Positions 1,391 to 62,401 of a stretch of DNA of 64,000 bases are shown here, in pieces; within the stretch, counting starts at the first letter, position 1, and the number at the start of each line of letters is the position of its first letter. Under the pieces are notes generated by a model, which searched no databases, was not told the origin of the DNA, and was given only the letters and a program-made list of their open reading frames with translations. The position numbers were made by a program, and so were the translations under genes. The DNA is from an uncultured virus (IMG/VR IMGVR_UViG_3300037043_000022) (taxonomy: Duplodnaviria; Heunggongvirae; Uroviricota; Caudoviricetes). Location of the stretch: the IMG/VR virus record IMGVR_UViG_3300037043_000022. One strand, given 5' to 3'.

Positions 1391-1936
1391 ATGCACTGGA
1401 TGATAGACATAACTAAAGAGCAATTAGCTGACGTGCTTCAAGCCTGTCGTTCATTGGAAACGGTAAATTTGGCATTCAGCGGTGATTTGCCACCAGAAAC
1501 AATTATTGAGCTGTTATTGAACAATAAAGTAAATTTATCTGGTATCATCGGACAATTAGATAAGCAATTTCTATCTATATGTATGGCAGCAGTGCAACAG
1601 AATGGTTATGCACTTAAGTACATTAAAAATCAGACGCCAGAAATCTGTCTGGCGGCAGTAAAACAAAATGGTTGGGCACTTAAATATGTCAGGGAACAGA
1701 CACCAGAAATATATATGGCAGCAGTAAAACGAGATGGTTATGCACTTCACTTTATTAAAGAACAAACACCAGACATATGTTTAGCAGCAGTACAACGAAA
1801 TGGTCAGGCACTTCAACATGTTAAAAAACAAACACCTGAAATATGCATGGCAGCAGTACAACAAGATTGCCATGCACTTAATCTTGTTAGGGATCCAGCC
1901 ATTAAATGGGAGATAGAACGTGCATTGGCTCTCTGA
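1391..1936 (+). CDS. DUF4116-type 22-aa repeat protein with MHW leader
   Basis: EQTPEICxAAVxxNGxALxYVK repeats; MHWMIDITKEQLADV N-terminus. Confidence 0.85.
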   Translation: MHWMIDITKEQLADVLQACRSLETVNLAFSGDLPPETIIELLLNNKVNLSGIIGQLDKQFLSICMAAVQQNGYALKYIKNQTPEICLAAVKQNGWALKYVREQTPEIYMAAVKRDGYALHFIKEQTPDICLAAVQRNGQALQHVKKQTPEICMAAVQQDCHALNLVRDPAIKWEIERALAL

Positions 1937-2456
1937 GGTGACTAAAGAACAATTAGCTGACGTGATTAAAGCCTATCATTCATCCTTTGGGCTACTGAAT
2001 CAGAAGGAACCAGAAATAATTATTGATATGTTATTAAATGATGAAATAAACTTATGTGACATCATCAAACATTTAAATAAACAATTTCCAGCTATATGTC
2101 TGGCGGCAGTACAACAGTATAATTGGGCACTACAATATGTTAAGGAACAAACGCCAGAAATGTGTATGACAGCAGTACAGCAGAATGGTTGGGCACTTCG
2201 ATATGTCAAAAAACAGACACTAGAGATGTGTATGACAGCAATACAAGAAAGTGGCCATGTGCTTCAATGTGTCAAGGAACAAACGCCAGAAATCTGTATG
2301 GCAGCAATACAACAACAATGGGGTTGGGCACTACAATATGTCAAAGAACAGACGCCAGAAATATGTATGACATCAGTACAACGAGATAAGGATACACTTC
2401 AATTTGTTAGAAACCCAACTCTTAGAGAGGAGATAAAACGTGCATTGGCTCTCTGA
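1920..2456 (+). CDS. DUF4116-type repeat protein with MHW leader
   Basis: GTG start, MHWLSEVTKEQLADV leader, repeats. Confidence 0.85.
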   Translation: MHWLSEVTKEQLADVIKAYHSSFGLLNQKEPEIIIDMLLNDEINLCDIIKHLNKQFPAICLAAVQQYNWALQYVKEQTPEMCMTAVQQNGWALRYVKKQTLEMCMTAIQESGHVLQCVKEQTPEICMAAIQQQWGWALQYVKEQTPEICMTSVQRDKDTLQFVRNPTLREEIKRALAL

Positions 2457-2590
2457 AGTGATTAAAGAACAATTAGCTGACGTGATTAATGGTTGAAATA
2501 AACCCAATGTGCATCTTAATGCGCATCTTAATGCATTCTGAAAAGCTCTTCAATTTGTTAAAGACCCAACTCTTAAGAAAGAGATAGCTA
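2428..2590 (+). pseudogene. collapsed DUF4116 gene remnant
   Basis: RBS plus leader DNA (gtgcattggctctctgaagtgattaaagaacaattagctgacgtgatt), then a copy of the C-cap (cttcaatttgttaaagacccaactctt); repeats are missing. Confidence 0.7.
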
Positions 2591-2645
2591 AGACATCAAC
2601 AAAGTGTGGGAAGAATGGGAACGGGTGATGAGAGGGAGGTGACAG

Positions 2646-3185
2646 ATGGGTAAATTGGTGCTCGAAATTTTACAGGACGAATCCGCCCCAAATCCTCGCA
2701 AAGAATATGATTGTTTCGGCAAGATGGTGTGCTTTCATCGCCGTTATGACTTAGGCGATGAACATGATTTCAAACATGAAGATTTCAATGGATGGGATGA
2801 ATTAGAGGGCCATTTACGCAAAGAATTGAATGCGGAAATCGTCTTACCATTATATCTTTATGATCACAGTGGCATTACGATGAACGTTACCGGATTCTCC
2901 TGCTCATGGGACTCTGGGCAAGTTGGTCTCATCTATGCCACCAAAGAAATGATCATGGAGGAACATGGGGATTGTAATGAGGAATCACTCAAGAAGACGA
3001 AGGAATTGTTAATCGCGGAAGTGGCGACGTACGATCAATATTTACAAGGCGACGTTTGGGAATACGTAATAAAGGACAAAGATGGCACTTGTGTCGATTC
3101 ATGTGGTGGATTCTACAACAAGGAATATTGCGGAGAGGAGGCGAAACGCTCCCTCAAGACTTTGGAAGCACGCATTAAAAAATAA
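2646..3185 (+). CDS. conserved phage/MGE hypothetical protein
   Basis: PNPR...GKMVCFHRRYDLGD...LPLYLYDHSGITM...WDSGQVG motifs recalled from a widespread uncharacterised MGE family. Confidence 0.7.
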   Translation: MGKLVLEILQDESAPNPRKEYDCFGKMVCFHRRYDLGDEHDFKHEDFNGWDELEGHLRKELNAEIVLPLYLYDHSGITMNVTGFSCSWDSGQVGLIYATKEMIMEEHGDCNEESLKKTKELLIAEVATYDQYLQGDVWEYVIKDKDGTCVDSCGGFYNKEYCGEEAKRSLKTLEARIKK

Positions 3186-3200
3186 CGGAAGGATGAGAAA

Positions 3201-3644
3201 ATGACCAAAGAGGGCTATTGGATCACTGATAAGGACAGACGACATGAGGTTTATGATCATGCTCAATGGGCATCTGAACGCGGTCTAGTCGATAAGGATT
3301 TAAATCCACACAATGACAAAGACCGCGTTCAGATTCTGCTACAAGTCATGAACAAAGGTTGGATCAGAGTTAGAGGACATGGCAACAGCATTACTTTCGA
3401 ATTTTCCAAAAACACGGATTCAGCCCTCTGGTCCATTTATCTCTTTTTAGAGAAAACCGGAATGGCAGGGCCATATACGCAATTGATTGTCAACAACCTC
3501 CGAACCAAAGACATGATTGACGTGCCTTATGACGGATTTAAAAAGGCTATGAAGAGCGACGAGGTGTTGATGCGTGAAGGTCTAAAGTATAATTATGATG
3601 AGAAATTCATCGCCAGAATAAACCAGAGGTTACGTCAAATTTGA
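3201..3644 (+). CDS. hypothetical protein, paralog of 30773..31168
   Basis: Shared GxWI...H..WA...GW[IV]R[VM]R pattern. Confidence 0.65.
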   Translation: MTKEGYWITDKDRRHEVYDHAQWASERGLVDKDLNPHNDKDRVQILLQVMNKGWIRVRGHGNSITFEFSKNTDSALWSIYLFLEKTGMAGPYTQLIVNNLRTKDMIDVPYDGFKKAMKSDEVLMREGLKYNYDEKFIARINQRLRQI

Positions 3645-3665
3645 ATCACAAAAAGGAGTGGGCAA

Positions 3666-4151
3666 ATGACGCTAATCGAATTATTGACGATGGCGGACAA
3701 AGAAACCATCGATGACATATTGCAAGCTGCACATAAGATCAATAAAAATTGGGCAAGATATAAAGATGAAACGATTATCAAGAAATTATGTAATGATGGA
3801 ATTAGGGCAGGATATGAAGAAGTATCGATGTTCTTATCAGAACTTCGAAAACCGGAAAAATTCGCCCATGTTAGATTTAAAGTGCCGTTCAGTACGGCCA
3901 TGGTTCCAGCATTGACGCTTGTGATACGTGATGGCTACTTCTATAATAGAATGGTTGATAAACAAATAAAATTGGTAGAAAAATTGCTGATGGGTGGGGC
4001 AGACCCTCATGAGACATGCGAAATTGAAGGCTGGACTCCTATGAAATTCGCAAAGAACCTCAACGATAGTGACATAATCAACATGTTAGAAAATCAAGAA
4101 AGGAATTTAAATGCACTGGATGACGACCGTAACCAAAGAACAGTTAGCTGA
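3666..4151 (+). CDS. leader-domain protein with ankyrin-like C-terminus
   Basis: ADKETIDDILQAAHKINKNWARYKDETIIKKL resembles the DUF4116 leader; LLMGGADPH...GWTPMKFA is ankyrin-like. Confidence 0.65.
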   Translation: MTLIELLTMADKETIDDILQAAHKINKNWARYKDETIIKKLCNDGIRAGYEEVSMFLSELRKPEKFAHVRFKVPFSTAMVPALTLVIRDGYFYNRMVDKQIKLVEKLLMGGADPHETCEIEGWTPMKFAKNLNDSDIINMLENQERNLNALDDDRNQRTVS

Positions 4152-4905
4152 CGTAATCCGAGCAGTGAGAAAGACTGATAGCAATTATAAACAGATGAAG
4201 GATGAAGTGATTATTGAGATACTATTGACTCGCCCCGTCCGCGCTCCGTCCCTACGCGGGTATGGGCCCAAATCGCTGCCAAGCGGTGATGCACTAAAAC
4301 ATTTAAACAAGCAATTTCCAGAAATATGTATGGCAGCAGTGCAAGAAGATGGTTATGCACTTGAATATGTCAAGGAGCAGACGCCAGAAATCTGCATGGC
4401 GGCAGTAAAACAAAATGGTGGTGCACTTAAACATGTCAAATGTTCTGCGAACAACAAAGAGCAGACGCTAGAAATATGCATGGCAGCAGTAAGACAAAAT
4501 AGTCATGCACTTCAGCATGTCAAAAAACAAACACCAGAAATATGTATAGCAGCAGTACAACGACATGGTTCGGCACTTGAATATGTTAAGGAACAAACGC
4601 CAGAAATGTGTATGGCAGCAGTGCAGCAGAATAGCAATGCACTTGAACATGTCAAATGTTCTGCGAACAACAAAGAACAGACACCAGAAATCTGTATGGC
4701 AGCAGTAAAAGGTAATGGTTTGGTACTTCAATTTGTCAAGGAACAGACGCCAGAATTGTGCATGGCAGCGGTACAACGAAATGGTCATGCACTTGAATAT
4801 GTCAAGGAGCAGACACCAGAGATATGTACGGCAGCAGTGCAGCAAGATGGTGAAGCACTTGAATATGTTAACAAAAAATTCAAGATCAAGATTGTTGAGG
4901 GGTGA
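4111..4905 (+). CDS. DUF4116-type repeat protein with MHW leader (two CSANNK inserts)
   Basis: Leader plus about 8 repeats. Confidence 0.85.
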   Translation: MHWMTTVTKEQLADVIRAVRKTDSNYKQMKDEVIIEILLTRPVRAPSLRGYGPKSLPSGDALKHLNKQFPEICMAAVQEDGYALEYVKEQTPEICMAAVKQNGGALKHVKCSANNKEQTLEICMAAVRQNSHALQHVKKQTPEICIAAVQRHGSALEYVKEQTPEMCMAAVQQNSNALEHVKCSANNKEQTPEICMAAVKGNGLVLQFVKEQTPELCMAAVQRNGHALEYVKEQTPEICTAAVQQDGEALEYVNKKFKIKIVEG

Positions 4906-4925
4906 CATTTGCGATGGAGGTTAAA

Positions 4926-5830: not shown

Positions 5831-6640
5831 TTGGCGGCATTTCGCCGTGCCAGTCTGGTACTTAAATTTCTGAAGAAGCCACGATGAAACGCGGTAGGGT
5901 GCTGCAATTGTGAGAGGAGATAAGATGACGACCACAAACAAGGAACTGGCAGCGGTACAACGAAATGGTTGGGCACTTGAATATGTTAAGGAACAGACAC
6001 CAGAATTGTGTCTGGCAGCAGTGCAACAAAATGGTTCGGCACTTGAATATGTCAAGGAACAAACACCAGAATTATGCATGGCAGCAGTGCAACAGGATGG
6101 TCGGGCACTTGAATATGTCAAAAAACAGACGCCGGAATTATGCATGGCAGCAGTGCAACAGGATGGTCGGGCACTTGAATATGTTAAGAAACCGCCAGAA
6201 TTATGTATGGCAGCAGTGCAACAAGATGGGCGAGCGCTTGAATTTGTTGAAGAGCAGACACCAGAAATATGCATAGCAGCAGTACAACAACATGGTCTGG
6301 CACTCCAACATGTCAAGGAACAGACGCCAGAAATATGCCTGGCAGCAGTAAAACAACATAATTGGGCATTACAGTATGTTAAGGAGCAGACACCAGAAAT
6401 ATGTATGGCAGCGGTACAACGAAATGGTTGGGCACTTGAATATGTCGAAGAACAAACACCAGAAATATGTATGGCGGCAGCACAACAAAATGGTGGTGCA
6501 TTTGAATATGTCGAAGAACAGACGTTGGCGGCATTTCGTCGTGCCAGTCTGGTACTTCTTGAGGGACTAAACCAATCTGAAGAAGCCACGATGAAACGCG
6601 GTAGGGTGCTACAATTGTGAGAGGAGATGGATGACAACCA
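5823..6640 (+). repeat. ~110-bp direct repeats (5823-5933 and 6517-6640) flanking a DUF4116 repeat block
   Basis: aacagacgttggcggcatttcg...atgaaacgcggtagggtgct.caattgtgagaggagat occurs twice. Confidence 0.9.
5925..6620 (+). CDS. leaderless DUF4116-type repeat protein
   Basis: About 9 repeats, no MHW leader, ends KRGRVLQL. Confidence 0.75.
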   Translation: MTTTNKELAAVQRNGWALEYVKEQTPELCLAAVQQNGSALEYVKEQTPELCMAAVQQDGRALEYVKKQTPELCMAAVQQDGRALEYVKKPPELCMAAVQQDGRALEFVEEQTPEICIAAVQQHGLALQHVKEQTPEICLAAVKQHNWALQYVKEQTPEICMAAVQRNGWALEYVEEQTPEICMAAAQQNGGAFEYVEEQTLAAFRRASLVLLEGLNQSEEATMKRGRVLQL

Positions 6641-10192: not shown

Positions 10193-10194
10193 TT

Positions 10195-12128: not shown

Positions 12129-12788
12129 ATGCACTGGATGACGAACGCAAGTAAGGAACAATTGAATGATGTGATTGAAGCAGTGAGAAAGTTTGATGGC
12201 AATTATAAACAGATGAAGGACGAAACGATCGTTAAGAAATTATTGGATGATGAGATTCGGGTTTTAAGTGATGTGCTTAAACATTTAGACAATCAATTTC
12301 CAGCCATATGCCTGGCAGCAGTACAACAATGGGGTCATGTACTTGTATATGTCAAGGAACAGACACCAGAAATATGCATGGCGGCAGTACGACAAAATGG
12401 TGCAGCACTTGAACACGTCAAGGAACAAACACCAGAAATATGCATGGCAGCAGTACAACAAGATAATGATGCACTTAAATATGTCAAGGAACAGACGCCA
12501 GAAATATGTATGGCAGTAGTACAACAATGGGGTTGGGTACTTGTATATGTCAAAAAACAGACGCCAGAAATATGCCTGGCAGCAGTACAACAAGATGGTG
12601 ATGCACTTCGGTTTGTCAAAAAACAGACGCCAGAAATATGCATGGCCGCAGTACGACAAAATGGTGCAGCACTTGAATATGTCAAAGAACAGACGCCAGA
12701 AATATGCATGGCAGCGGTAAGACAAAATGGTGATGCACTTAAATATGTTGATAGGAAATTCAAGACCAAGATCTGCATTCTGGCATAG
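12129..12788 (+). CDS. DUF4116-type repeat protein with MHW leader
   Basis: Leader plus about 7 repeats. Confidence 0.87.
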   Translation: MHWMTNASKEQLNDVIEAVRKFDGNYKQMKDETIVKKLLDDEIRVLSDVLKHLDNQFPAICLAAVQQWGHVLVYVKEQTPEICMAAVRQNGAALEHVKEQTPEICMAAVQQDNDALKYVKEQTPEICMAVVQQWGWVLVYVKKQTPEICLAAVQQDGDALRFVKKQTPEICMAAVRQNGAALEYVKEQTPEICMAAVRQNGDALKYVDRKFKTKICILA

Positions 12789-12798: not shown

Positions 12799-13410
12799 GT
12801 GCACTGGATGACGAACGCAAGCAAGAAACAAATAAGCGACGTAATTCAAGTAGTGCAGAAGATTGACGATTATAAACAGATGAAGGATGAAACGATTGTA
12901 GAGAGATTGTTGAACAATGAAATAAGCTTGTGGGGCGTACTCCATGATTTGGGCGATCAATTTCCTGAAATATGCATGGCAGCAGTACAACGAAATGGTT
13001 ATACAATTAAATTCGTCAAAGATCAGACGCCAGAGATATGTCTGGCGGCAGTAAAACAAAATGGTCAGGCGCTTGAATATGTAAAAAAGCAGACGCCGGA
13101 AATATGTATGGCAGCAGTAAAAGAAAATGGTTGGGCACTTCGATATGTCAAAAAACAGACACCTGAAATATGTCTGGCGGCAGTAAAACAAAATGGTCAG
13201 GCGCTTGAATATGTAAAAAAGCAGACGCCGGAAATATGTCTGGCAGCAGTGCAGAAATGCGGGATGGCGCTTGAATTTGTTAAAAAGCAGACGTTGGAAA
13301 TTTGCACTGCAGCGATTGATGCAGCAATTGCAGCAAATATGACGGAGGTAATAGATTTTGTCGATACAACTAAATTTGAAATAGAATCACTTTCCATAAA
13401 GAAGAAGTAG
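12799..13410 (+). CDS. DUF4116-type repeat protein with MHW leader
   Basis: GTG start, leader plus about 5 repeats. Confidence 0.87.
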   Translation: MHWMTNASKKQISDVIQVVQKIDDYKQMKDETIVERLLNNEISLWGVLHDLGDQFPEICMAAVQRNGYTIKFVKDQTPEICLAAVKQNGQALEYVKKQTPEICMAAVKENGWALRYVKKQTPEICLAAVKQNGQALEYVKKQTPEICLAAVQKCGMALEFVKKQTLEICTAAIDAAIAANMTEVIDFVDTTKFEIESLSIKKK

Positions 13411-17636: not shown

Positions 17637-18413
17637 ATGAATGAACCGAAGTGGAGACCAATGCCGTTCAAGGAATTTATTGCATCATCATTAGCGACGC
17701 GGGAAATCGTCGAAGACATATTGCAAGCAATGCGAAAAGTCGACAAAAACGTCTTACGAATGACGGATCATAAATTGATGGCTAATTTGATTGAACATGC
17801 CGACACTGGACATAAAAAATATTCTCTCATAAATGGAACATGGATTTATAACATGAAATGCAAAGTGCCGGAATTGATTCTACAGACATACACGAACGTC
17901 AATAGAGGTCACATTACAATCCCATCAGAATTAGATAATTTTGAATTCCGCCATGCAGCGATGCATGCCGCATCCGAAAAATGTGTCAGTAATTTCCTAA
18001 ATCAATGCAAGCATAGTTGCAAGCATTTGAATTATACGGAAGAACAAATCAGGGAGTTGACAATCATCGCGATCAACGTTAACCCAAAATTACCCTTAGA
18101 CTACGGTTATGCCATGGGTGATGACATGAAATTGATCGCAATTAAAAAAAGTCGATCGCCGTGGTTGTTACATAAACTTCGGTTCAAAGACAAACAAACG
18201 CTGCTCGAAGCACAAATGATAGTTGCTGAAAACATGGCCAACAAAAGAGATCTGTACGTCGATGAATTTTCGGAATTCATACGCATAATGCCAAACGAAC
18301 ACAGACATCTGAACAGCATGATCAGAACGTGGATCGAGAACACGGAGGAGAAAAATGGACAAAAAAGAAATGCAGATGCTGTTGGAACGAGTAGCCGCAG
18401 CCAGGATGGATGA
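17637..18413 (+). CDS. helical protein with divergent leader domain
   Basis: ATREIVEDILQAMRKVDKNVLRMTD resembles the DUF4116 leader. Confidence 0.6.
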   Translation: MNEPKWRPMPFKEFIASSLATREIVEDILQAMRKVDKNVLRMTDHKLMANLIEHADTGHKKYSLINGTWIYNMKCKVPELILQTYTNVNRGHITIPSELDNFEFRHAAMHAASEKCVSNFLNQCKHSCKHLNYTEEQIRELTIIAINVNPKLPLDYGYAMGDDMKLIAIKKSRSPWLLHKLRFKDKQTLLEAQMIVAENMANKRDLYVDEFSEFIRIMPNEHRHLNSMIRTWIENTEEKNGQKRNADAVGTSSRSQDG

Positions 18414-21423: not shown

Positions 21424-22191
21424 ATGGACGTTTCACAGTGGTTGGAAACTGCCACCAAGGAGGAAATAGACGACATCATCGAAGCCGTGCACAATGTAAA
21501 TGGAAACACGGCACGATGGAATCCGGCCACATGTTTGAAAAGATTAATGTCTTACCCCATAAAAGATCTCTACCCATATCTTAAGAATGAACGCACTAAA
21601 GAATTATTGTTCGATCCAGCATGGTACGCACATCGGGATACCCGTGCTATGGTGTGCAAGCATGCACCAATTCATTTAGTTGAAAGATTTACGAAAGAAT
21701 TTTTGTTGACTATGTCGAAAAACGGACGATTAATAAAGGTCATAGAAATTCTAAAGAATCAACCATCCTTCGAAAGAGTGGCCATCATTACGTCACTCTA
21801 TGATCCAGAGTTGAATTTGTTCATCAACAATTCATTCGTTTTATCTCAGTATCTGCCCAGTGCCATGCTCGCAACGGTTGCTCGCGTATATCCCAAAATG
21901 ATAAGTTGTCTAAGCCATTATGTAATGATGAGTAACGTTGAACTTTTTGACATCATGTTTTCTCTTTTACCGACAGATGCACCAAAGATTCTGTCAGGTT
22001 TTGAACCAATCAAGGATTTACGCATAGCGATGAAGGCAGTCAAATGTAATCCTCGTTGTCTGCCCTATTTGGATGCCAGCATACAATCACAAATATTCGA
22101 GGAAATCGGATATGACGTGATGTCAGAAGCTGCCATCAAATGCATAGAAAGAAGCACACAAGGGATGTGGAAAGGAGAATGCCATGGGTAG
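21424..22191 (+). CDS. helical repeat protein with divergent leader domain
   Basis: WLETATKEEIDDIIEAVHNVNGN resembles the leader; IAMKAVKCNPRCLPYL is a degenerate DUF4116-like repeat. Confidence 0.65.
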   Translation: MDVSQWLETATKEEIDDIIEAVHNVNGNTARWNPATCLKRLMSYPIKDLYPYLKNERTKELLFDPAWYAHRDTRAMVCKHAPIHLVERFTKEFLLTMSKNGRLIKVIEILKNQPSFERVAIITSLYDPELNLFINNSFVLSQYLPSAMLATVARVYPKMISCLSHYVMMSNVELFDIMFSLLPTDAPKILSGFEPIKDLRIAMKAVKCNPRCLPYLDASIQSQIFEEIGYDVMSEAAIKCIERSTQGMWKGECHG

Positions 22192-22571: not shown

Positions 22572-23105
22572 ATGCACTGGATGATGAACGCAAGCAAGGA
22601 ACAGTTGGCTGATGTAATCCAAGCAGTAAAGAAGATAAACAATAATTATGAACGAATGAAGGATGTAACGATTGTCAAGAAACTGATGAATGATGAAGTA
22701 AATCTATTGAATGTGTTCAAACATTTGGACAAGCAATTTCCAGAAATCTGCATAGCAGTAGTAAAACAACGTAGTTATGCACTTGAATGCATCGAAAAAC
22801 AGACACCAGAATTGTGTTTAGTTGCAGTACAACAAAATGGTTTGGCACTAAAATATGTGAAGGAGCAGACACCAGAAATATGTATGGCAGCAGCGCAAGA
22901 AAACGGTTATGCGCTTCAGCATGTTAAGAAACAGACACCAGAAATCTGTCTGGCAGCAGTACAACAGGACGGTTCGGCACTTAAATATGTCAAAGAACAG
23001 ACACTAGAAACGTGCATGGCGGCAGCACAAGGAAATGATACAGTGTTTGATCTCATCGATAAGACTAAATTCAGGGTCGAAATCGAGATCACAAAAATCA
23101 CATAA
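22572..23105 (+). CDS. DUF4116-type repeat protein with MHW leader
   Basis: Leader plus about 5 repeats. Confidence 0.87.
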   Translation: MHWMMNASKEQLADVIQAVKKINNNYERMKDVTIVKKLMNDEVNLLNVFKHLDKQFPEICIAVVKQRSYALECIEKQTPELCLVAVQQNGLALKYVKEQTPEICMAAAQENGYALQHVKKQTPEICLAAVQQDGSALKYVKEQTLETCMAAAQGNDTVFDLIDKTKFRVEIEITKIT

Positions 23106-23397: not shown

Positions 23398-23569
23398 AAG
23401 TTGTCCGGCACCGTTTCGAATCCGGCACGGTAAGGAGTGGAACGACTACGGCGATTTGTGTCGTTCACAGATCATAATTGACGCTGATGGCAAAGAACGT
23501 ATGCTGATTTTAACGTCGGCACATAAAGCCGACGTCTATGTGTTAGGAGATAAAACGTGCACTGGATGA
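23351..23569 (+). CDS. hypothetical protein
   Basis: AGGAGG RBS; its 3' end runs into an orphan leader start. Confidence 0.55.
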   Translation: MRRKIKSFKKAKALLESCPAPFRIRHGKEWNDYGDLCRSQIIIDADGKERMLILTSAHKADVYVLGDKTCTG

Positions 23570-23580
23570 CGAACGCCAAG
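23545..23580 (+). pseudogene. orphan DUF4116 RBS plus leader start
   Basis: aggagataaaacgtgcactggatgacgaacgc matches the 12799 gene start, then truncates. Confidence 0.75.
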
Positions 23581-23596
23581 TCAAGGAGAAAGAAAA

Positions 23597-24626: not shown

Positions 24627-24847
24627 TGATAAAAATCAAATTAGGAAATAAAGCGAGAGACGTGAATTTGGTCCTTCCATCCGGCAAAGAAATTTTACTG
24701 CAATGGCGATTGGAAGCGCCATCTTTGGACATATGTCTGCCATACGTAACATCCGTCACAAACATGAAAAAAGAAATGCCTGGCAAATCGCATAAAGCCG
24801 ATCAAATTGTCATTGACGTCAACCCAGAAGATCTAAAGGAGAAATGA
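24623..24847 (+). CDS. hypothetical protein
   Basis: AAGGAG RBS, ATGA coupling. Confidence 0.55.
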   Translation: MMIKIKLGNKARDVNLVLPSGKEILLQWRLEAPSLDICLPYVTSVTNMKKEMPGKSHKADQIVIDVNPEDLKEK

Positions 24848-39675: not shown

Positions 39676-40308
39676 ATGCATTGGCTGATGGATATAACCA
39701 AAGAACAATTACAAGACGTAATTCGGACTGCGAAACGTAGTTATAAGCCTCATAATCTCTCTAATCTTACTGATGTTCGTATAATCGAGAAATTATTCAA
39801 CAACGAGGTAAATCTACATTATGTATGTAAGAGCATGAATGAACAATTTCCAGCAATCTGCATAGCAGCAGTAAAACAGGATGTGAGCGGCAAAGCACTT
39901 AAATGTGTCAAGAAACAGACGCCAGAGATATGTCTGGCAGCAGTACAACAAGACGGTCATGCACTTCAATATGTTAAGGAACAGACACCAGAGATATGTC
40001 TGGCAGCAGTACAACAAGACGGTCATGCACTTCAATATGTTAAGGATCAGACGCCAGAGATATGTATAACAGCAGTAAAACAATATGGTTGGGTACTTCG
40101 ATATGTCAAAGAACAGACGCTAGAAATATGTATGGTGGCAGTACAGCGACATGGTTGGGCACTTAAGTATGTCAGGGAACAAACGCCAGAAATGTGTATG
40201 GCAGCAGTGAAACAAAGCCACCCAATGTCATGCACATATAAACACATCAAAGATCCAGTTCTTAAAGAAGAATTCAAAACGTGGGGAGTTAAAAAATGCA
40301 TTGGCTGA
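39676..40308 (+). CDS. DUF4116-type repeat protein with MHW leader
   Basis: MHWLMDITKEQLQDV plus repeats. Confidence 0.87.
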   Translation: MHWLMDITKEQLQDVIRTAKRSYKPHNLSNLTDVRIIEKLFNNEVNLHYVCKSMNEQFPAICIAAVKQDVSGKALKCVKKQTPEICLAAVQQDGHALQYVKEQTPEICLAAVQQDGHALQYVKDQTPEICITAVKQYGWVLRYVKEQTLEICMVAVQRHGWALKYVREQTPEMCMAAVKQSHPMSCTYKHIKDPVLKEEFKTWGVKKCIG

Positions 40309-41048
40309 TGGATATAACCAAAGAACAATTACAAGACGTAATCCAGACTGCAAAGCATGGTTATGATCTTATGTCTCCAGAAAATAGGTCCGTCATCACA
40401 GACACATCGGAACATGGCATAATTGAGAGATTGTTATGTGGTAAGATAGATTTATATTTTATCTTGGGACATATGAATAGACAATTTCCAGCGATTTGCA
40501 TGGCTGCCGTGCAACAAAATGGTTATGCACTCAGACTTGTCAAGGAACAAACACCAGAAATATGTCTGGCTGCAGTACAACAGAACGGCTATGCGCTTGA
40601 ATTTGTCAAAGAACAGACGCCAGAAATATGCCTGGCAGCAGTAAAAGATAATGGTTATGCTCTCCAAGATGTCAGAAGACAGATATTAGAAGGCATCTAT
40701 GGCGCACAAATACGTATGGCAGCGATAAGACAACAAGGCCATGCACTCAAATACATCGGAGAGCAAACACCCGAAATGTGTATGGCAGCAGTGCAACAAA
40801 ATGGTTGGGCACTGCAATTTGTCAAGAGTCAGACGCCAGAGATATGTATGGCAGCAATAAAACAAGATGGTCGAGCGCTTGAATATGTCAAGAATCAGAC
40901 ACCAGAAATATGTATGACAGCAGTGCGACAGGATGGTGGGGCACTTAAATATGTCAAGGAACAGACGCCAGAAATATGTTTAACTGCGGTGCAGCAATAT
41001 GGTCCAGCGCTTAAATATATGGCGGCGAACGTGCCGCCTAGGAGTTAA
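40296..41048 (+). CDS. DUF4116-type repeat protein with MHW leader
   Basis: MHWLMDITKEQLQDV plus repeats. Confidence 0.87.
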   Translation: MHWLMDITKEQLQDVIQTAKHGYDLMSPENRSVITDTSEHGIIERLLCGKIDLYFILGHMNRQFPAICMAAVQQNGYALRLVKEQTPEICLAAVQQNGYALEFVKEQTPEICLAAVKDNGYALQDVRRQILEGIYGAQIRMAAIRQQGHALKYIGEQTPEMCMAAVQQNGWALQFVKSQTPEICMAAIKQDGRALEYVKNQTPEICMTAVRQDGGALKYVKEQTPEICLTAVQQYGPALKYMAANVPPRS

Positions 41049-41051: not shown

Positions 41052-41495
41052 ATGCACTGGCTGATGGATATAACTAAAGAACAATTACAAGACGTAATCC
41101 AGATTGTAAAGCATGGTGCCGCCGTCGGCGCTTTCGGTTATAATATGGAACGCAGTACAACGGATTATGAGATCGTCGAAAAATTATTAAACGATGAAAT
41201 AGATTTATATTACATATGCAATAACATAGATAAACAATTCCCCGCAATTTGTATGGCAGCAGTAAGACAAGATGGTTATGCACTGAATTGCATTAAGGAG
41301 CAGACGCCAGAATTGTGTATGGCCGCAGTACAACAAGATGGTTGGGCACTACAATTTGTCAAGGATCAGACGCCAGAAATATGCCTGGCAGCAGTAAGAC
41401 AAAATGATAACACTCACCGTTTCATTAGAAGCACAGAACTTCGTGCATCTATTAGAAGAGGTGATAAATTGGCCGATACAACCCTTTTACCATAG
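41052..41495 (+). CDS. DUF4116-type repeat protein with MHW leader
   Basis: MHWLMDITKEQLQDV plus about 3 repeats. Confidence 0.85.
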   Translation: MHWLMDITKEQLQDVIQIVKHGAAVGAFGYNMERSTTDYEIVEKLLNDEIDLYYICNNIDKQFPAICMAAVRQDGYALNCIKEQTPELCMAAVQQDGWALQFVKDQTPEICLAAVRQNDNTHRFIRSTELRASIRRGDKLADTTLLP

Positions 41496-47408: not shown

Positions 47409-47921
47409 GTGCACTGGATGATGAGCGCAAGCAAGGAACAATTAGCTGACGTAATTGAAGCAGTAAGGAAGATAAACAATGATTATGAACAAATGAAGGA
47501 TGAGGAAATTGTCGAGAAACTGTTGAGTGATGAAATAAATTTTTGTGAGATACTTAAACGTTTGGATAAACAATTCCCTGAGATCTGTATGGCAGCCATA
47601 ACGAAAGATGATTGGGATTTCCTTAGCGGCGGAAAATACACACTGAGCGTAACCACTGGTCGAACGATAGATCACGTTAAGGAGCAGACGCCGGAAATGT
47701 GTCTGGCAGCAGTAAAACAGGATGGTCATGCACTTGAATATGTCAGAGAACAAACACCAGAAATATGCATGGCAGCAATAAAACAAAATAGCAATGCACT
47801 TCAATATGTCAAAGACGAGAGATTAAGGAAGGAATTAAGGAAGGAAATATGCGAACAAGTGCCTGTGCAATGGTTTGCACCCGCTGGTCTTTTGGAACGA
47901 ACGCAAAGAAAGGAGCAATAA
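47409..47921 (+). CDS. DUF4116-type repeat protein with MHW leader
   Basis: GTG start, MHWMMSASKEQLADV. Confidence 0.85.
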   Translation: MHWMMSASKEQLADVIEAVRKINNDYEQMKDEEIVEKLLSDEINFCEILKRLDKQFPEICMAAITKDDWDFLSGGKYTLSVTTGRTIDHVKEQTPEMCLAAVKQDGHALEYVREQTPEICMAAIKQNSNALQYVKDERLRKELRKEICEQVPVQWFAPAGLLERTQRKEQ

Positions 47922-48214: not shown

Positions 48215-51200
48215 ATGAGATTGATTCACCCATTTCGGGACTTCGTTGATCCGGATGAATTATTTGACGGCGTGAATGGTCTGAATGCATATTGTAATAA
48301 ACTCGAATCATTGGCTATTAAATATGCCAACAGAATGGAACCGAATTTAATTAAGGGCAATGGGTTCGAATTGTTCGTTGAATATTTAATTAAAATGTCA
48401 TCAAACGATAATCGGATCGGCATTTCCGATTATGAACCAGTAGACGTATCTTCAGATACTGGCGTTGACGGCAAAGGCACATCCACAATAAATGGAAGAC
48501 CAATCACGGTACAAGCAAAATATCGTCAAGCAAATCATGTGTTGACGAATGAAGACAAACTGACGAATTTATTGTCTGCGTCGTGGGGTAAATATGGCGT
48601 CCATATTAAAGACGACAAGAACATGCTGATCATGTCTTCGGCCGGTAGCATACATCATTTTACGGAATCTGAGATGTTACAGGGCAAGGTGCGGACGCTT
48701 CTTCGTGAAGACCTCCGCCATATGACCGACAACATGGTAGGTTTCTGGTCTGATTTTAAGGCGTCAGTCATTGCAAGTCAGACGCCGACGGCGGATAGAC
48801 AACAAATCAAATTGCGACAACATCAGACTGAAGCCATTGACGTGGTGGTTGGATTAATCGCTTCAAACGTCAACAAAGGCATTGTGGAATTGCCGACTGG
48901 AACCGGCAAGACGTACGTGCAAGCTGCAATTATCAATGAATTGATCAAAAAGGGAATGAAAACGTTTGCAGTTTTCTCACCCCGAATTCTGTTGTCGTTT
49001 CAACTGTTGGAAAACGTCGCAGAATATCTCAACGGCATTGGTACCGAAGTTGAATATCTTAACGTCAACAGTGGTCGTTTCGACGAGACTGAAATCAACG
49101 AGGCAAGAAAATCATCCGGCATGTTGGTCAGTCAAGTTAAATCAACTACGTCGTCGTTGGAAATTTATGAAGTATACAAACGAGCACAAGCCAACAATAA
49201 ACCGTTGGTTATCTCATCTACATATCATTCTGCTGAACAACTGGACGAAGCCAAGAAATTGGGCTTCGAATTGGACGTTCAACTCAATGATGAAGCTCAT
49301 CATATGGTTTCTGACGAATTTGGTAAATTTACGTCAATCGGCAATTTCTCTTATTCATTTACCGCCACACCCAAAATAACTGAAGGTGGCAAAAAAGGTT
49401 ATGGTATGAACAATGAGGAGAAATTTGGCAAAATCATCTTTAGAAAGACGCCGCGTGAAATGATTGACGCCGGTGAAATGTTGCCGCCAGCCTTACACAT
49501 CGTGGAAGCATTAGGTGAAAGCAACAAGGAAGCAGAAGTAAAAGTAGATGCCTATGACGAAATAACCAGATGTTTGATGCTTACATTTGCCAGACATGAA
49601 GAATGGTTGTTTCTAAAGAGCAAAGAACCGACCAAAATCGGCGCAAAAATGTTGATCACCGTAAAGGATCAAAAGACGTTGAAGGGAATATTGAACAGTA
49701 AGGAATTGCAGGAGTTCCACAAGACCAGAACAGACGTCCACGTCATGGCATTGTCCTCCAACGTCGGCGTATATTCCGATGGTTGGGTGATTCAAGGGAC
49801 GTCCGATGATTGGATGCTGCCGTCTCGTCATAAAGACCCGTTTTTGAGAAATCTCCAAAACCTTAAGGAAGACGACAAAGCCATCATTCTATATGTAGAC
49901 ATGTTGACGGAAGGCATTGACGTCCCTGGCATTACGTCGTTCATGCCGCTTCGATCAATGTCCGACACCGGTTTTAAGCAGGGTGTCGGTCGGTCCTGTC
50001 GTCTTCAAAGAGACGACAGGAAGGCACTTTATGAGGGTTCTCTAAAACCAGAACAACATGTCCGATTCGTCAAACCCTACGCCGCAATCGTCATACCACG
50101 CGTGTTGATTGAATCGAAAGACTATACAGAGAGATATAAAGATCTGCTTTATACGTTGGTCGATGAATATGGTTTAGATAAAGAAATGATCAGAATTGAC
50201 GACATGTTCGGTGCAAAGGACGAAGAACCCAAAGGACAAAATAGTCTAACGAGACGCTTAAAAACGTCTAAAATGGAAGTTGAAAAGTATTTCCAAGAAG
50301 TAAAGGATGATTTGGACCGACCGCTTGAAATCCATGAATTGGCGGTCTTTGATTTATTAAATTTGTTCATTGCCGATCCGGATGCTAAAGATAAAGTATT
50401 TGGTAAAATTAAGACGTGGTTTAAAGACGGATTGAAAGAATACGACGACCGAGCATGGCGACGCTACAAGAGGGATGAGGATTACTTGAAGACGATCGAC
50501 AAAGCACGGAAAGCAAAGCGCGGCGTCTTCTCCGATGATTGTCGGAAGAAGTATGGCACAATCTATACGCCGGAATTTGTAGTAAAAGAGACCGTGGATT
50601 TGGCTTTCAAATATCTTCCTAAAGACGTTGACATTTTGAACCTTACTTATTGCGATCCAGCCAGCGGCGACGGCAATTTCTTGATCTTCCTCTATCACAA
50701 ATTGATGAGAGAAGGCACATCCATCGTTGATCCAATTGAACGCTCATACCACATTCTGACCCATTGTCTCCACGGCATCGAAATCCTAGAACCGATGTAT
50801 TATGCTTGCAAAATCCGTTTAGTTACGGCACACTTCGAGACGGTCCTAAAACATGGTGGTGACTGCACAAAATATGTTGATCTGATGGATAATTGGTCAC
50901 CGACCAATAACGGCAAAGTGTTGAACATCCACTGGGGCAACACGATCTGTATGCCGGATGATACCAAAGAAGAATGGTATCAACAACCAGTCATTAAGAA
51001 GACGATCAAATGTTCTGCGAACAACAAGGACAAAGAAGGCAAGGATGTTGATGTCGAAATCGGTCGTCCGGAAAATGAAGGTGGATTGTTGCCGGAAGAA
51101 ATCCGAAACAAGAAATATGATATGATCGTGGGGAATCCGCCCTATACTAGATTTATTGGATATAAATATTCTGAATATAAAGAACAAATGGATTTTGCTC

Positions 51201-59543: not shown

Positions 59544-59555
59544 AAAGGATAGAAC

Positions 59556-60260
59556 ATGCATTGGATGATGGAAGTGACCGATAAACAGTTGCAGGACGTG
59601 TTTCGAGCCGTAAGAAGCATAGATGATGTCCATGCTTCAATGAAAGACAAAAAAATTGTCAAGAAATTACTGGATGATGACATAGATTTATATGAGACGC
59701 TTGCGCATTTAGATAAACAATTCCCCGCAATTTGTATGGCCGCAGTAAAACAGAATGGCCATGCACTCTTATTTATCAAAGAACAGACGCCAGAATTATG
59801 TTTAGCGGCAGTAAAACAGAATTGTTGGGCACTTGAATATGTCAAAGAACAGACGCCTGAATTATGTATGGCAGCAGTGAAGCAGGATGAATTCGTCCAC
59901 TGTTTCCATTTTGTCAAAGAACAGACGCCAGAGATATGTATGGCGGCAATAAAACAAAATGGTCGGGCACTTCAATGGATCAAAGAGCAGACACCAGAAA
60001 TGTGTATGATGGCAGTAAAACGACATGGCCCAGTACTTGAATATGTTAAATGTTCTGCGAACAACAAAGGGCAGACGCCAGAAATATGCATGGCAGCAGT
60101 AAAACAAGACGGTTATGCACTCAAATATGTCATAGAACAGACACCAGAGATATGTATGGCGGCAATAAAACAAAATGGTCGGGCATTTGAATTCGTCAAG
60201 AATGAAAAGCTTCGTACATCATTGAGAAAAGCAGGGATAGGAGCAGAACCCTCATGTTAG
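59556..60260 (+). CDS. DUF4116-type repeat protein with MHW leader (one CSANNK insert)
   Basis: MHWMMEVTDKQLQDV plus about 7 repeats. Confidence 0.87.
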   Translation: MHWMMEVTDKQLQDVFRAVRSIDDVHASMKDKKIVKKLLDDDIDLYETLAHLDKQFPAICMAAVKQNGHALLFIKEQTPELCLAAVKQNCWALEYVKEQTPELCMAAVKQDEFVHCFHFVKEQTPEICMAAIKQNGRALQWIKEQTPEMCMMAVKRHGPVLEYVKCSANNKGQTPEICMAAVKQDGYALKYVIEQTPEICMAAIKQNGRAFEFVKNEKLRTSLRKAGIGAEPSC

Positions 60261-60846: not shown

Positions 60847-60849
60847 CAT

Positions 60850-61212
60850 ATGGACGAACGAAATAAGATCGCCGCATTAAAATCATTAGATGACATGTTA
60901 AAATTAGAACGTGATTGGGATGGATATGGGTCAGAAGCACCAAATATAATTGCGGTCGATTTAGCAAAGAGAACAATCATGTCTGCGTACGAGAAAACGT
61001 TCCCTTGGACTAACGTCTTAGCAAGTGTACAAGAAGGCGTAGCGATATCATTCACCACACCCTCAAATAAAACATATGCATATGTTGAGACTTACAATGT
61101 TGGTGAAATTACTGCACTCGTCTGTGTGAATGGTCAAATCCGGAGTTGGGACATCCCTCCTGCTGAGTTAGATCAACATATAGAAAACATACGGAATGCA
61201 ATTCTCAGATAA
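60850..61212 (+). CDS. conserved hypothetical protein (L..DWDGYG..AP family)
   Basis: LERDWDGYGSEAP. Confidence 0.65.
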   Translation: MDERNKIAALKSLDDMLKLERDWDGYGSEAPNIIAVDLAKRTIMSAYEKTFPWTNVLASVQEGVAISFTTPSNKTYAYVETYNVGEITALVCVNGQIRSWDIPPAELDQHIENIRNAILR

Positions 61213-61216
61213 AACA

Positions 61217-61244
61217 TTGACGACAACGGAACCAGTATTAAAAA
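61217..61244 (+). promoter_or_regulatory. putative promoter TTGACG-N16-TAAAAA
   Basis: Intergenic; resembles the 17137 and 32648 sites. Confidence 0.35.
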
Positions 61245-61279
61245 ATGAGAAGAATGCAGCAATTTTGGAGGGTTAAGAC

Positions 61280-61747
61280 ATGTTAAGCGAGCATGAATTG
61301 GTTGTTAAAGTCAGAATAGAATTATACCCAACCGCTAAAAAAGTCAATGACACTTGCGAGGCACTATTCAATACCTCCTTCAAACAAGCGATAGGACCGA
61401 CTGGGGTAACTGGAACAAACGAGTTGGCGTGGACCGTTCATTATCTGAGATCAGCGGCGGGCATGCTTGAACGGATTGGTGCTGCCGGAGATCTTGTTGA
61501 TGTGTCTACCGAAACTATAGAAGAATTATACAAAATTGCCGTAGGTCTCGACAGGACTTGTCATTCGTTATTTGAACAGCACATTTATCCAGGATGTCCG
61601 CCAACTGGAGTAGGCGGATCAAGCAGATTGGACTTTACCGCCGGTTATCTTAAATCATCGGCAAGCATGCTCGAACGCATTGGAGGTGATAAAGGTTTTG
61701 TTGAAAAACAAGCGCAATGGGAACGGGGAGTGGACGATTTGTACTGA
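61280..61747 (+). CDS. protein made of two internal repeats
   Basis: ELY..A.....TC..LF.......PTGV.G...L..T..YL.S.A.MLERIG occurs twice. Confidence 0.7.
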   Translation: MLSEHELVVKVRIELYPTAKKVNDTCEALFNTSFKQAIGPTGVTGTNELAWTVHYLRSAAGMLERIGAAGDLVDVSTETIEELYKIAVGLDRTCHSLFEQHIYPGCPPTGVGGSSRLDFTAGYLKSSASMLERIGGDKGFVEKQAQWERGVDDLY

Positions 61748-61783
61748 ATTATCGGTGTGATTTGATGTGCAAGGAGATAAAAC

Positions 61784-62401
61784 ATGCATTGGCTCTCTGA
61801 GGTGACTAAAGAACAATTGAATGACGTGATCCAGGCAGTGAGGAAGATTGATGATAATCATAAAAACATGGAGGACGAAATGATCGTTGAGCAATTATTG
61901 AATGATAAAGTGTCTTTATATTCCTTCTGGTGTGATGTACTTAAACATTTAGATAAACAATTTCCTGAAATATGCATAACGGCGGTACGAGAAGACTGTA
62001 ATGCACTTCAATATGTCAAGGAACAGACGCCAGAAATGTGTATAGCAGCAGTGCAACGAATTGGTTGGGCACTTCGATATGTCAGAGAGCAGACGCCAGA
62101 AATGTGTATAGCAGCAGTGCAATGGGATGGTTCGGCACTTGAATACGTCAAAGAACAGACGCCAGAAATCTGTCTGGCAGCAGTAAAACAAAATAATGAC
62201 GCGCTTGGGCATATCAGAGATGAGAAATTAAGAGGGATAGTTGGACAAATGTTGGTTGGCCACGTGAGCGAAATTAAGCGAGCTTTCATATACAATGGCA
62301 ATGTCTTCTGTTCCTTACAGGAGGCGAGGGCGGCGAAGAAAGAACATGAGTCGAAAAATAAAGACGAAGAATTACTCATTGAGCACATCGTTATTGGTTA
62401 G
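61784..62401 (+). CDS. DUF4116-type repeat protein with MHW leader
   Basis: MHWLSEVTKEQLNDV plus about 4 repeats. Confidence 0.87.
   Translation: MHWLSEVTKEQLNDVIQAVRKIDDNHKNMEDEMIVEQLLNDKVSLYSFWCDVLKHLDKQFPEICITAVREDCNALQYVKEQTPEMCIAAVQRIGWALRYVREQTPEMCIAAVQWDGSALEYVKEQTPEICLAAVKQNNDALGHIRDEKLRGIVGQMLVGHVSEIKRAFIYNGNVFCSLQEARAAKKEHESKNKDEELLIEHIVIG

Follow-up and report, generated by a model that had tools for sequence, protein, structure and literature searches.

DUF4116 repeat proteins with a common N-terminal domain in a T4-like jumbo phage: a putative adaptor repertoire with one fast-evolving position per repeat

TAL effectors are built from repeats of 33-35 amino acids in which two adjacent residues vary over a small alphabet, and PPR proteins from repeats of about 35 amino acids with the PPR sequence signature; both bind DNA or RNA in a sequence-specific manner with one repeat per base. 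Variable lymphocyte receptors arise by cytidine-deaminase-driven assembly of LRR cassettes into an incomplete germline gene, diversity-generating retroelements cause adenine-specific variation from a template repeat, the internal proteins of T-even phages are packaged in the head via a short N-terminal signal, and viral repeat proteins with F-box, RING or IBR domains follow the ankyrin/F-box logic. In Podospora anserina the WD40 repeats of about ten HNWD (het-d/het-e) paralogues, which have high internal conservation, undergo concerted evolution both inside a locus and from one locus to another, and diversifying selection acts on a few binding-surface residues of each repeat (PMC1805685; PMC13449251). 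For the DUF4116 family (PF13475) a trRosetta model with an alpha-solenoid fold has been reported (PMC8078820). In the available excerpts of the literature on this family no function was found, and neither selection nor exchange between genes is described.

The 22-residue helical repeat encoded in a 64,000-nucleotide stretch (the window) of a complete 320-kb T4-like jumbo phage is Pfam DUF4116. A six-frame pattern scan of the complete genome yielded 17 repeat ORFs, 16 of them in the window and all of these on its plus strand, with 91 anchored units altogether and 83 in the window. They form tandem arrays of three to eight anchored units with a period of 66 bp or 22 amino acids; the first anchored unit was found at 1562 and the last at 62153-62218, in agreement with the preliminary description of this DNA, where such arrays had been noted over 1560..62215. 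Of 15 repeat ORFs in the HMM scan, 14 scored 40-178 bits against DUF4116, over the curated cut-off of 24.9 bits, and one, the fused ORF at 24844, stayed under it with 20.7 bits; the gene at 35582, the sixteenth ORF, reached 29.8 bits in a separate scan. Every match sits in an open frame without internal stops. What is added here to the DUF4116 repeat is an undescribed N-terminal domain (N-domain) of about 55 amino acids, which heads 15 repeat genes, 14 of them in the window (Table 1). One ankyrin-like gene and two more genes for helical proteins start with this domain as well, and it also occurs in an ORF of its own. It is predicted to be a folded unit of three to four helices. It has no consistent Pfam match and only 31 matches among 1.84 billion representatives, and in the matches inspected it stands N-terminal with unrelated C-termini. 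Structural comparison gave a best Z of 3.9 (rmsd 3.0, 48 aligned), and PYD/DED chains at Z 2.8-3.7 were within background. The family identity of the repeat and the N-terminal domain common to most genes had both been overlooked in the preliminary description. The gene products are small two-part proteins of one paralogous family, in which the constant, predicted helical N-domain is followed by a predicted alpha-solenoid of three to eight DUF4116 units.

Table 1. Repeat genes, N-domain genes and associated features in the window.
Feature	Position	Strand	Remarks
Gene 2	1391..1936	+	N-domain and 5 DUF4116 units
Gene 3	1920..2456	+	N-domain and 5 units; GTG start overlapping end of gene 2
Orphan N-domain start	2440..2496	+	18 codons; other frame encodes last residues of gene 3; probable remnant of a lost paralogue
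Ankyrin-like gene	3666..4151	+	N-domain (E 1e-19, profile contains this sequence itself) and ankyrin-like C-terminus (Ank_2 E 0.0021, under curated cut-off); no DUF4116
Gene 4	4111..4905	+	N-domain and 8 units, 2 with 18-bp/6-aa insert
112-bp duplication	5823-5934 and about 6517-6640		Flanks gene 5
Gene 5	5925..6620	+	Repeats only, no N-domain
Gene 6	12129..12788	+	N-domain and 7 units; AlphaFold2 model
Gene 7	12799..13410	+	N-domain and 6 units; 72-bp exact internal repeat
N-domain gene	17637..18413	+	Divergent N-domain; C-terminus matches no known family
N-domain gene	21424..22191	+	C-terminus with one faint DUF4116-like stretch (E 0.017); homologue P0026
Gene 8	22572..23105	+	N-domain and 5 units
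Orphan ribosome-binding site and N-domain start	23557..23622	+	Probable gene remnant
Gene 9	24844..25488	+	Unrelated ORF ending in about 2 DUF4116 units (E 3e-4, under cut-off)
Gene 10	25485..26177	+	N-domain with altered start and 7 units
Gene 11	35582..36148	+	N-domain and divergent units
Gene 12	39676..40308	+	N-domain and 6 units; 59-bp exact internal repeat
Gene 13	40296..41048	+	N-domain, 7 anchored units and one irregular stretch
Gene 14	41052..41495	+	N-domain and 3 units
Gene 15	47409..47921	+	N-domain and 3 units
Restriction-modification/helicase gene	48215-52075
Stretch in this gene	51006..51027	+	22 bp identical to insert region of 2 gene 4 units
52-bp duplication	58530-58581 and 59505-59556		Precedes gene 16
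Gene 16	59556..60260	+	N-domain and 7 units, 1 with insert
Gene 17	61784..62401	+	N-domain and 4 units

The AlphaFold2 model of gene 6 (mean pLDDT 94.7) has a helix at unit positions 4-13 and a short helix at 15-20, so that helices of 10 and 6 residues alternate in a predicted alpha-solenoid, and Atlas models of DUF4116 clusters match at a TM of 0.67-0.82. In the second helix the variability moment (148 degrees) and the hydrophobic moment (310 degrees) point apart on a helical wheel. The variable positions 16, 19 and 20 lie opposite the hydrophobic face of this helix, by helical wheel only, which is in line with the earlier proposal that the variable sites line one face.

Per-position entropy was calculated for 56 inner units, a set which leaves aside both terminal units of every gene, the whole divergent gene at 35582 and units of odd length, and which includes the gene outside the window. 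The near-fixed scaffold of the preliminary description was confirmed: Q2, T3 and L18 are invariant and P4, E5, C7, A10, V11, A17 and V21 have at most 0.43 bits, the conservation of Q2, T3 and C7 being partly imposed by the anchoring pattern. With pN/p4-fold values of 0-0.3 the scaffold positions are under strong purifying selection. The unit alignment also bore out the residues listed earlier for positions 14, 16, 19 and 20; that they vary freely holds for position 16 alone, which has 3.42 bits and 15 different residues, the other three being chemically restricted: position 14 is N or D in 44 of the 56 units, position 19 E, Q, K or R in 52, and position 20 Y, F or H in 53. At 1.6 bits position 20 is nearly matched by positions 1, 6, 8, 12 and 13 (1.3-1.5 bits). 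No significant coupling or mutual information of position 14 with 16 was detected in the 56 units. Measured against four-fold sites, an imperfect neutral standard which may itself be constrained (in the viral loci L017 and L019 many positions exceed 1), pN/p4-fold was 2.08 at position 16 (gene bootstrap CI 1.66-2.64), the only position above this yardstick. The values for positions 14 (0.96), 19 (1.21) and 20 (0.94) have intervals which all include 1.

Near-identity of the units between genes, as claimed in the preliminary description, was not found: among 86 units the 3,438 between-gene pairs agree at 71% of DNA positions on average, or at 77% when inner units are compared. The closest pair agrees in 62 of 66 bases, and four pairs reach 90% and none 95%. 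The longest exact in-register run common to two genes, 39 bp, does not exceed what 40 codon-shuffled controls give (maxima of 35.7 on average and of 44 at most), and by this comparison no long recent block exchange between genes was seen. Identity is almost equal within genes (77.5%) and between genes (76.7%). Mean r2 is 0.021, compared with 0.030 +/- 0.004 in a clonal simulation (none of 150 simulations as low) and 0.018 under free reassortment; the four-gamete fraction (0.90 versus 0.93 in the clonal simulation) does not separate recombination from clonality. N-domain distances (0.19-0.52) and repeat distances (0.20-0.28) are uncorrelated (rho 0.007, 14 genes). The same 18-bp insert occurs in four units of three genes and in the restriction-modification gene, and the database protein P0006 has the tail of gene 1 (94% over 65 amino acids) joined to a different N-domain and only two units. 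The sequence comparisons support the view that units have been mixed between genes, with sites near linkage equilibrium. A weak within-gene signal persists (p 0.03), the nearest neighbour being in the own gene for 9.4 of 56 units where 3.5 are expected. A contig of another run and the database copies carry gene 2 unchanged, and shuffling is therefore not rapid across these samples, which may represent one campaign. The database proteins P0003 and P0004 differ in repeat number, which may be an assembly collapse.

In their mode of evolution, not by homology, the phage repeats resemble the HNWD repeats: they evolve in concert within and across loci, with diversifying selection at position 16 only. 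In contrast to the fungal proteins, the phage proteins are predicted alpha-solenoids instead of beta-propellers and carry no NACHT or cell-death domain, and one selected site stands against four in HNWD, whose repeats are 80-100% identical versus about 77% in the phage. Starting from the anatomy, the predicted fold, the purifying selection on the scaffold, the mixing of units and the replacement excess at position 16, we consider it moderately probable that the genes encode a set of adaptors for protein binding which, like the fungal repeats, owe their diversity to ordinary recombination together with selection. The short second helix would display a variable stripe, with position 16 above all and positions 19, 20 and 14 within limited chemistry. 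Mixing would occur by ordinary homologous or microhomology recombination in phage replication, with no dedicated diversifier; the phage encodes its own RecA and a gp32-like protein. New residues at position 16 would arise by point mutation, spread between genes and be retained by selection; codons at this position are mostly uniform between genes (histidine CAT in 8 of 8 cases in five genes, serine TCG in 4 of 4 in four genes). The solenoid may bind host proteins, targets of defence or takeover, during infection, by surface complementarity over several repeats and not by a one-repeat-one-base code, and the N-domain may dock all members on one common partner as F-box and RING domains do in other viruses. 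If this is true, a bacteriophage uses the diversification scheme of fungal non-self receptors for a set of host-protein binders, position 16 is the family-wide specificity site of DUF4116, and finding what the N-domain docks on would uncover a counterpart of F-box adaptors in phages.

That the arrays bind proteins is suggested by the domain fusions of homologues. DUF4116 is abundant in phages and giant viruses, where at least 3,024 of 8,000 scored candidates are homologues, and matches PHROGs 17056, 5925 and 31839 (function not known). Multiple copies occur in the cultured phages Pseudoalteromonas phage Slicky01 (9 places), Bacillus phage AgentSmith (17 places), Salicola SCTP-2 and Agrobacterium Atu_ph07. 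Homologues are fused to F-box (P0119), IBR (P0082), ankyrin (P0061) and RING domains (P0059 and P0135 over the cut-off, L017 and L019 below it), E3-type fusions amounting to 4 of 117 homologues screened plus the loci L017 and L019. Position 16 is the general site of variation in the family: in 467 units, taken from 105 of the 117 homologues, no other position varies as much, and in each of 7 other viral sets pN/p4 peaks there. The fusions likewise combine a constant adaptor with a variable solenoid; the phage repeat genes themselves carry no F-box or RING, and no ubiquitin machinery was found among the ORFs scanned. No DUF4116 match was detected in the complete or near-complete relatives G002-G005 (71-77% capsid identity), and the family is therefore dispensable in the wider clade. 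The recombination-diversified binder library of the preliminary description gains support on its evolutionary side, the repeats being homogenised across genes and position 16 evolving fast; that the library binds is suggested by the homologue fusions.

An extended version, which may be correct but which we regard as rather less than probable, sees an antibody-like adaptor repertoire: about 19 proteins with one new docking domain and interchangeable arms (DUF4116, ankyrin, other helical) would act on a single host or phage machine, for example protease, polymerase or virion, the arms being assembled from some 90 units that reassort freely over the whole genome, each with a single specificity residue. 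DUF4116 would then be a minimal, 22-residue programmable binder scaffold.

Tolerated drift we judge unlikely, though it accounts for several observations. A stable recombinogenic scaffold would have been spread by duplication, position 16, in the first turn of helix 2, would be the surface site under the weakest constraint, and the paralogues would be mostly redundant without distinct targets, an ordinary repeat-gene expansion. Remnant starts, a gene of repeats only, the repeat tail of an otherwise unrelated ORF and duplications beside genes indicate much gene birth and death, positions 14, 19 and 20 are at about the neutral level, and N/D-G at positions 14-15 fits helix capping. As expected of a permissive site, position 16 is variable in every lineage. 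Against drift, position 16 stands at about twice the four-fold yardstick, and transversion diversity is 0.30 and 0.38 at its first two bases versus 0.054 at four-fold sites (highest 0.125). The site is moreover rich in W, Y and H (with F, 41 of 84 residues) instead of small polar residues, and the 15 main genes are uninterrupted frames covering 9.3 kb or 14% of the window.

Less likely still are packaged effectors or decoys, for which the N-domain would be a head-sorting signal and the solenoids would be injected with the DNA and themselves block host defence proteins, no shared partner in the cell being involved. As with the T-even internal proteins, a conserved N-terminus heads variable small proteins, with unrelated C-termini, in a phage with a T4-like virion and a prohead protease gene, and the stand-alone N-domain-like ORF (G000:216205-216489) lies 1.6 kb downstream of the capsid gene. 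A predicted folded domain of 55 residues is, however, far longer than the short T4 signal, the bodies consist of repeats, the genes sit in a small-gene, single-strand region distant from the head and tail genes, and one of them has no N-domain.

The TALE/PPR-like code of the preliminary description, with one base read per 22-residue unit through positions 14, 16, 19 and 20 and the N-domain anchoring to DNA or RNA, is improbable. The phage proteins share with TALE and PPR proteins helical repeats in tandem whose scaffold is fixed and whose variation is tied to particular positions, aromatics at 16 and 20 could stack on bases, position 22 is K or R in 54 of 56 inner units, and PPR chains turn up at Z 4.2-4.7 (rmsd 11-14 A) among weak structural matches, where ankyrin and armadillo chains do equally well. 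Yet an array of three to eight units would be too short to specify a site, one position holds 15 residues and positions 14 and 16 form 30 different pairs in 56 units, which leaves no small code alphabet, net charge is +1 or less in 11 of 15 proteins, the majority being neutral to acidic, and position 16 varies in RING-fused homologues too. The 22-residue period and the lack of a TALE or PPR match in Pfam speak against membership in either family, and the single hypervariable site against TAL effectors.

A dedicated diversifier, with DGR-like or VLR-like templated mutagenesis or cassette assembly, is hardly credible. The very fine-grained mosaicism and a transition-rich spectrum would agree with it; against this, the complete genome has no reverse transcriptase (PF00078) match at E 10 (control positive in 4 of 14 genomes), and variable sites are not adenine-restricted, since the bases at which codon 16 varies have T, C or G as majority and both C/T and A/G polymorphisms occur throughout. 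Genome self-matches contain no untranslated template array, and gene 2 shows no change from sample to sample. The VLR analogy drawn earlier fails on anatomy because the genes are intact and dispersed and no donor-cassette array was seen; nor is the repeat an LRR in the Pfam scan. Assembly chimerism as the source of the mosaic is just as remote: contigs of other runs do break inside arrays and in two database variants units are missing at just the places of the longest exact repeats, but exact matches between genes do not exceed 39 bp, reading frames are intact, and a contig of run X4 covers gene 2 without a single difference.

The 22-residue unit is the Pfam domain DUF4116, which also matches PHROGs of unassigned function, and Tandem Repeats Finder together with a six-frame scan of the genome bore out that its 66-bp arrays lie across the span from 1560 to 62215. 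The unit occurs in seventeen open reading frames, of which 16 belong to the window and the remaining one lies 8 kb upstream of it, and 91 units could be anchored. Variability was calculated for 56 inner units from 15 genes, after trimming 28-residue units to 22 and excluding the terminal units of each gene, units of odd length and the divergent gene at 35582. Entropy was highest at position 16 (3.42 bits, 15 residues), followed by positions 19 (2.22 bits), 14 (1.95) and 20 (1.58); positions 1, 6, 8, 12, and 13 reached 1.3–1.5 bits and the scaffold 0–0.43 bits, positions 2, 3, 6, and 7 being partly held fixed by the anchoring pattern. The residues listed for the variable positions in the preliminary description were recovered, but its statement that these positions vary freely applies to position 16 alone. 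Its near-identical DNA units in distant genes could not be found, with a mean identity of 71% between genes, an identity of at least 90% in 4 of 3,438 pairs, and a longest exact run common to two genes of 39 bp, similar to that in shuffled controls. The original observation is real and was overstated in part.

Position 16 also stands out in its substitution pattern. Within the repeats the difference at four-fold sites is 0.31 per site, made up of 0.26 for transitions and 0.054 for transversions. This is so although codon usage in the rest of the window is close to even, and the sites are therefore not saturated. The first and second bases of codon 16 show a diversity of 0.64 and 0.70, with transversions of 0.30 and 0.38. 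Between-gene pN relative to the four-fold difference, an imperfect yardstick given possible constraint on such sites and the dependence among pairs, was 2.08 at position 16 (1.66–2.64 in 1,000 gene bootstraps), 1.21 at position 19, 0.96 at position 14, and 0.94 at position 20, the latter three with intervals spanning 1, and at most 0.3 in the scaffold. Over the whole unit dN/dS was 0.31. The position-16 pattern is family-wide: this position has the top entropy in 467 units of 105 of the 117 database homologues, and the top pN/p4 (range 1.2–6.6) in all seven other viral sets analysed, two of which (loci L017 and L019) show many positions above 1. L023, which duplicates L022, was omitted from these sets; L020, L021, L026, L027, and L029–L032 lay outside the analysis.

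That recombination diversifies the repeats, as had been proposed, is backed in its evolutionary part by linkage and by gene anatomy. Units are 77.5% identical within a gene and 76.7% between genes (permutation p 0.03). Linkage across 35 informative sites is near equilibrium, with an r2 of 0.021. None of 150 clonal simulations on the fitted tree gave so low a value (0.030 ± 0.004), and free codon reassortment gave one a little smaller (0.018); by the four-gamete fraction, recombination and clonal simulation could not be told apart. In the 14 genes compared, the N-terminal domains which precede the repeats have structured distances of 0.19–0.52 (four-fold transversions 0.147), the repeats distances of 0.20–0.28 (0.053), and the two are uncorrelated (rho 0.007). 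An 18-bp in-frame insert, which contains a short inverted repeat with 5-bp arms and a 3-base loop, occurs in four units of three genes over 68 kb, and the same sequence is found in a restriction-modification/helicase gene; elsewhere in their length the insert-bearing units agree at 47–57 of 66 positions against a background of 50.6 ± 3. The complete genome contains no reverse transcriptase, and ordinary recombination through the RecA-type system of the phage would be the simplest engine of mixing. Taken as a whole this is an unusually clean phage case of a known repeat family in concerted evolution, with diversification at a single site.

Orphan gene starts at 2440 and 23557, a repeat-only gene between 112-bp duplications, DUF4116 units added onto an unrelated reading frame, and duplicated junctions point to repeated gene gain and loss. 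The database homologue P0006 combines the tail of gene 1, the upstream gene, with a different N-terminal domain and has 2 units against 8. Gene 2 (1391..1936) is identical in a contig of the public run X4 and in database copies, which counts against fast turnover. Homologues P0003 and P0004 lack two units and one unit, respectively, where the longest exact repeats lie (72 and 59 bp); the longest contig is 138,175 bp for both, and they probably derive from one assembly, so that these losses, which assembly collapse could explain, were not counted as true variants. Of the 40 differing letters listed in contigs of four runs, the 33 checked match paralogues elsewhere in the genome exactly and thus reflect cross-mapping, not variants; this comparison covers contigs, with 116 further rows beyond those 40, and its RNA contigs say nothing on transcription. 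As separate observations, the 3' ends of an AAA ATPase gene, a small gene, and a DNA ligase gene are duplicated around short gene blocks, resembling insertion scars, a gene junction holds three perfect 55-bp tandem copies, and a reading frame ending in DUF4116 units holds two of 57 bp. A 7-bp inverted repeat, scored as terminator-like for the minus strand and perhaps incidental, lies in units with leucine at position 8.

The N-terminal domain of about 55 residues, which opens fourteen window genes and the upstream one, is a portable domain previously undescribed. At E ≤ 1 its profile matches the genome in 21 places, namely the 15 repeat genes, three window reading frames, a stand-alone reading frame, a remnant at 2440, and one weak match (E 0.016) which was disregarded. 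Reading frames with the domain and without proper DUF4116 arrays start at 3666, 17637, and 21424, their sequences being part of the profile; the C-terminus of the first has an ankyrin-like segment under the cut-off (E 0.0021). The stand-alone frame, which gave an hhalign probability of 91% with the N-terminal domain, is also present in the virus genome G001, and four less closely related jumbo phages gave no match; a homologue search with it returned only itself. Among 1.84 billion representatives the domain had 31 matches, several of them own or near-own proteins of this phage, and by the 28 inspected the remainder belong to a few other lineages, judged by sequence, and in nearly all of them DUF4116-like repeats follow an N-terminal copy of the domain. 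The predicted fold is a small helical bundle (pLDDT 80) with no Foldseek match at E 0.001 and a best VIA-align Z of 3.9, which is background; assignment to a Rho-N/SAP-type or death fold was unsupported in Pfam, PDB-sequence, and Atlas searches. At the gene starts 1920, 2440, 4111, and 47409 the stretch comprising the ribosome-binding site and initial codons of an N-domain gene also encodes, in another frame, the C-terminal residues of the upstream gene, and genes 2 and 3 have identical last five residues through this out-of-frame reading. As the start of the next gene doubles as the 3' coding end of the previous one, tandem copies overlap, and their translation is probably coupled.

AlphaFold2 modelled gene 6 (12129..12788) with 15 paralogue rows at a pLDDT of 94.7, each unit forming a helix at positions 4–13 and a short helix at 15–20. 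The whole protein had no Foldseek match at E 0.001 and a best VIA-align Z of 5.4, again background, with ankyrin, armadillo, and PPR chains tied at Z 4–5.4 and no clear solved relative. On the wheel of the short helix variability points to 148 degrees and hydrophobicity to 310 degrees, so that residues 16, 19, and 20 face away from A17, L18, and V21 and would form a concave binding stripe. Homologues of the repeat are fused to F-box (P0119), RING (P0059, P0135), IBR (P0082), and ankyrin (P0061) domains, the RING matches in L017 and L019 being under the cut-off. In E3 ligase fusions of this kind the partner module serves as substrate receptor, a point in favour of protein ligands, and tryptophan, tyrosine, histidine, or phenylalanine, typical of protein-binding interfaces, occupies position 16 in 41 of 84 units. 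The most likely reading, with chances we put a little above even, is that the DUF4116 genes are a predicted repertoire of protein-binding adaptors. A nucleic-acid code read base by base, as suggested by the earlier comparison with TALE and PPR repeats, is very improbable: the arrays are short, a single site has a large alphabet, position 14 is not coupled to 16, and protein charge is mostly neutral or acidic. The features of TALE, PPR, VLR, DGR, and T4 internal proteins used in comparison are general background.

Cultured phages also have multi-copy DUF4116 sets. The complete 145-kb virus record G006 has a like architecture, with a cluster of at least 14 DUF4116 genes and 92 units (loci L018, L024), most of these genes having their own, different constant leader, and has reached this architecture independently. 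In phage Slicky01 (L033, 10174-12498) three DUF4116 genes have a common short leader and two a common constant C-terminal tail. By mechanism the nearest described system, in the passages available of its reports, is the Podospora HNWD family (PMC1805685, PMC13449251). In excerpts of the literature DUF4116 was modelled as a solenoid (PMC8078820), appears in a figure legend (10.1101/2022.04.12.488082) and by chance (PMC13119156), and is grouped as PF13475 with ubiquitination domains in a passage which gives no support (10.1101/2022.05.19.492674). The family is absent from the inspected parts of a jumbo-phage review (PMC7824862), whose supplements might name it, and no description of a phage DUF4116 repertoire was found in the literature searched, where most subscription journals are uncovered and supplements may hold mentions.

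Coordinates of the window and of features in and around it
Feature	Position	Remark
Window	G000:42959-106958	minus strand; within 320,399-bp single contig
Stand-alone N-domain-like frame, 94 aa	G000:216205-216489 (L009:15205-15489)	1.6 kb downstream of capsid gene; E 1.6e-6, outside profile
18-bp insert copies	51006-51027 (restriction-modification/helicase gene), 4436, 4652, 60048, one 7.5 kb upstream of window	
Units with 7-bp inverted repeat	1635-1654, 5998-6017, 6325-6344, 12562-12581, 13028-13047	terminator-like scoring
Duplicated 3' ends	12048-12083 and 13739-13774; 58530-58581 and 59505-59556; 28203-28290 and 29066-29153	
Three 55-bp copies	59126-59292	
Two 57-bp copies	25269-25377	
Two small genes and AAA ATPase	6951-7349, 8511-8726, 10434-12089	
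Actin-like protein	L007:6477-7751 (G000 169477-170751)	Volactin E 1.5e-47
Mom-like domains	L011:679-2010, L011:16648-18432, L013:10841-12226, L013:14056-15693	

The genome G000 has direct terminal repeats and a completeness rating of 100%. Pfam found a T4-like Gp23 capsid protein, T4 portal, prohead protease, tail sheath, DnaE, RecA, a gp32-like protein, sigma factors, and an actin-like Volactin domain, the scan outside the window covering 112 of 152 reading frames of at least 200 residues, with 38 others scanned against PHROGs. The phage is a T4-like jumbo myophage. The fragment G001, in which DUF4116 gave no match, encodes an identical capsid protein. Five public runs labelled as groundwater or coal metagenomes, which may be a single campaign, contain half or more of the words sampled from 4000-13500. 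Alignments of the N-terminal domain against viral and metagenome contigs gave no match, although very near records may be missing from these collections, and neither did a word-based search with the domain alone or queries with the restriction-modification gene (48215-52075) and the 22-bp insert. A degenerate DNA pattern gave no matches in viral contigs and seven in metagenomes, none with DNA similarity to this genome; we take six to be retrotransposon-like frames and one another unrelated frame. The window consists of small genes, mostly of no known function and nearly all on one strand, and sigma-70-like promoters in its positions 1–14,500 gave 25 matches against 27.9 by chance. Two small PHROG-matched genes of no known function and an AAA ATPase in the window form a set which presumably resembles a DUF1257/DUF2997/Ycf46 module. 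Elsewhere this T4-like jumbo phage encodes the actin-like protein and four Mom-like DNA-modification domains, some with fused homing-endonuclease-like parts, and glycosyltransferases and methyltransferases are numerous.
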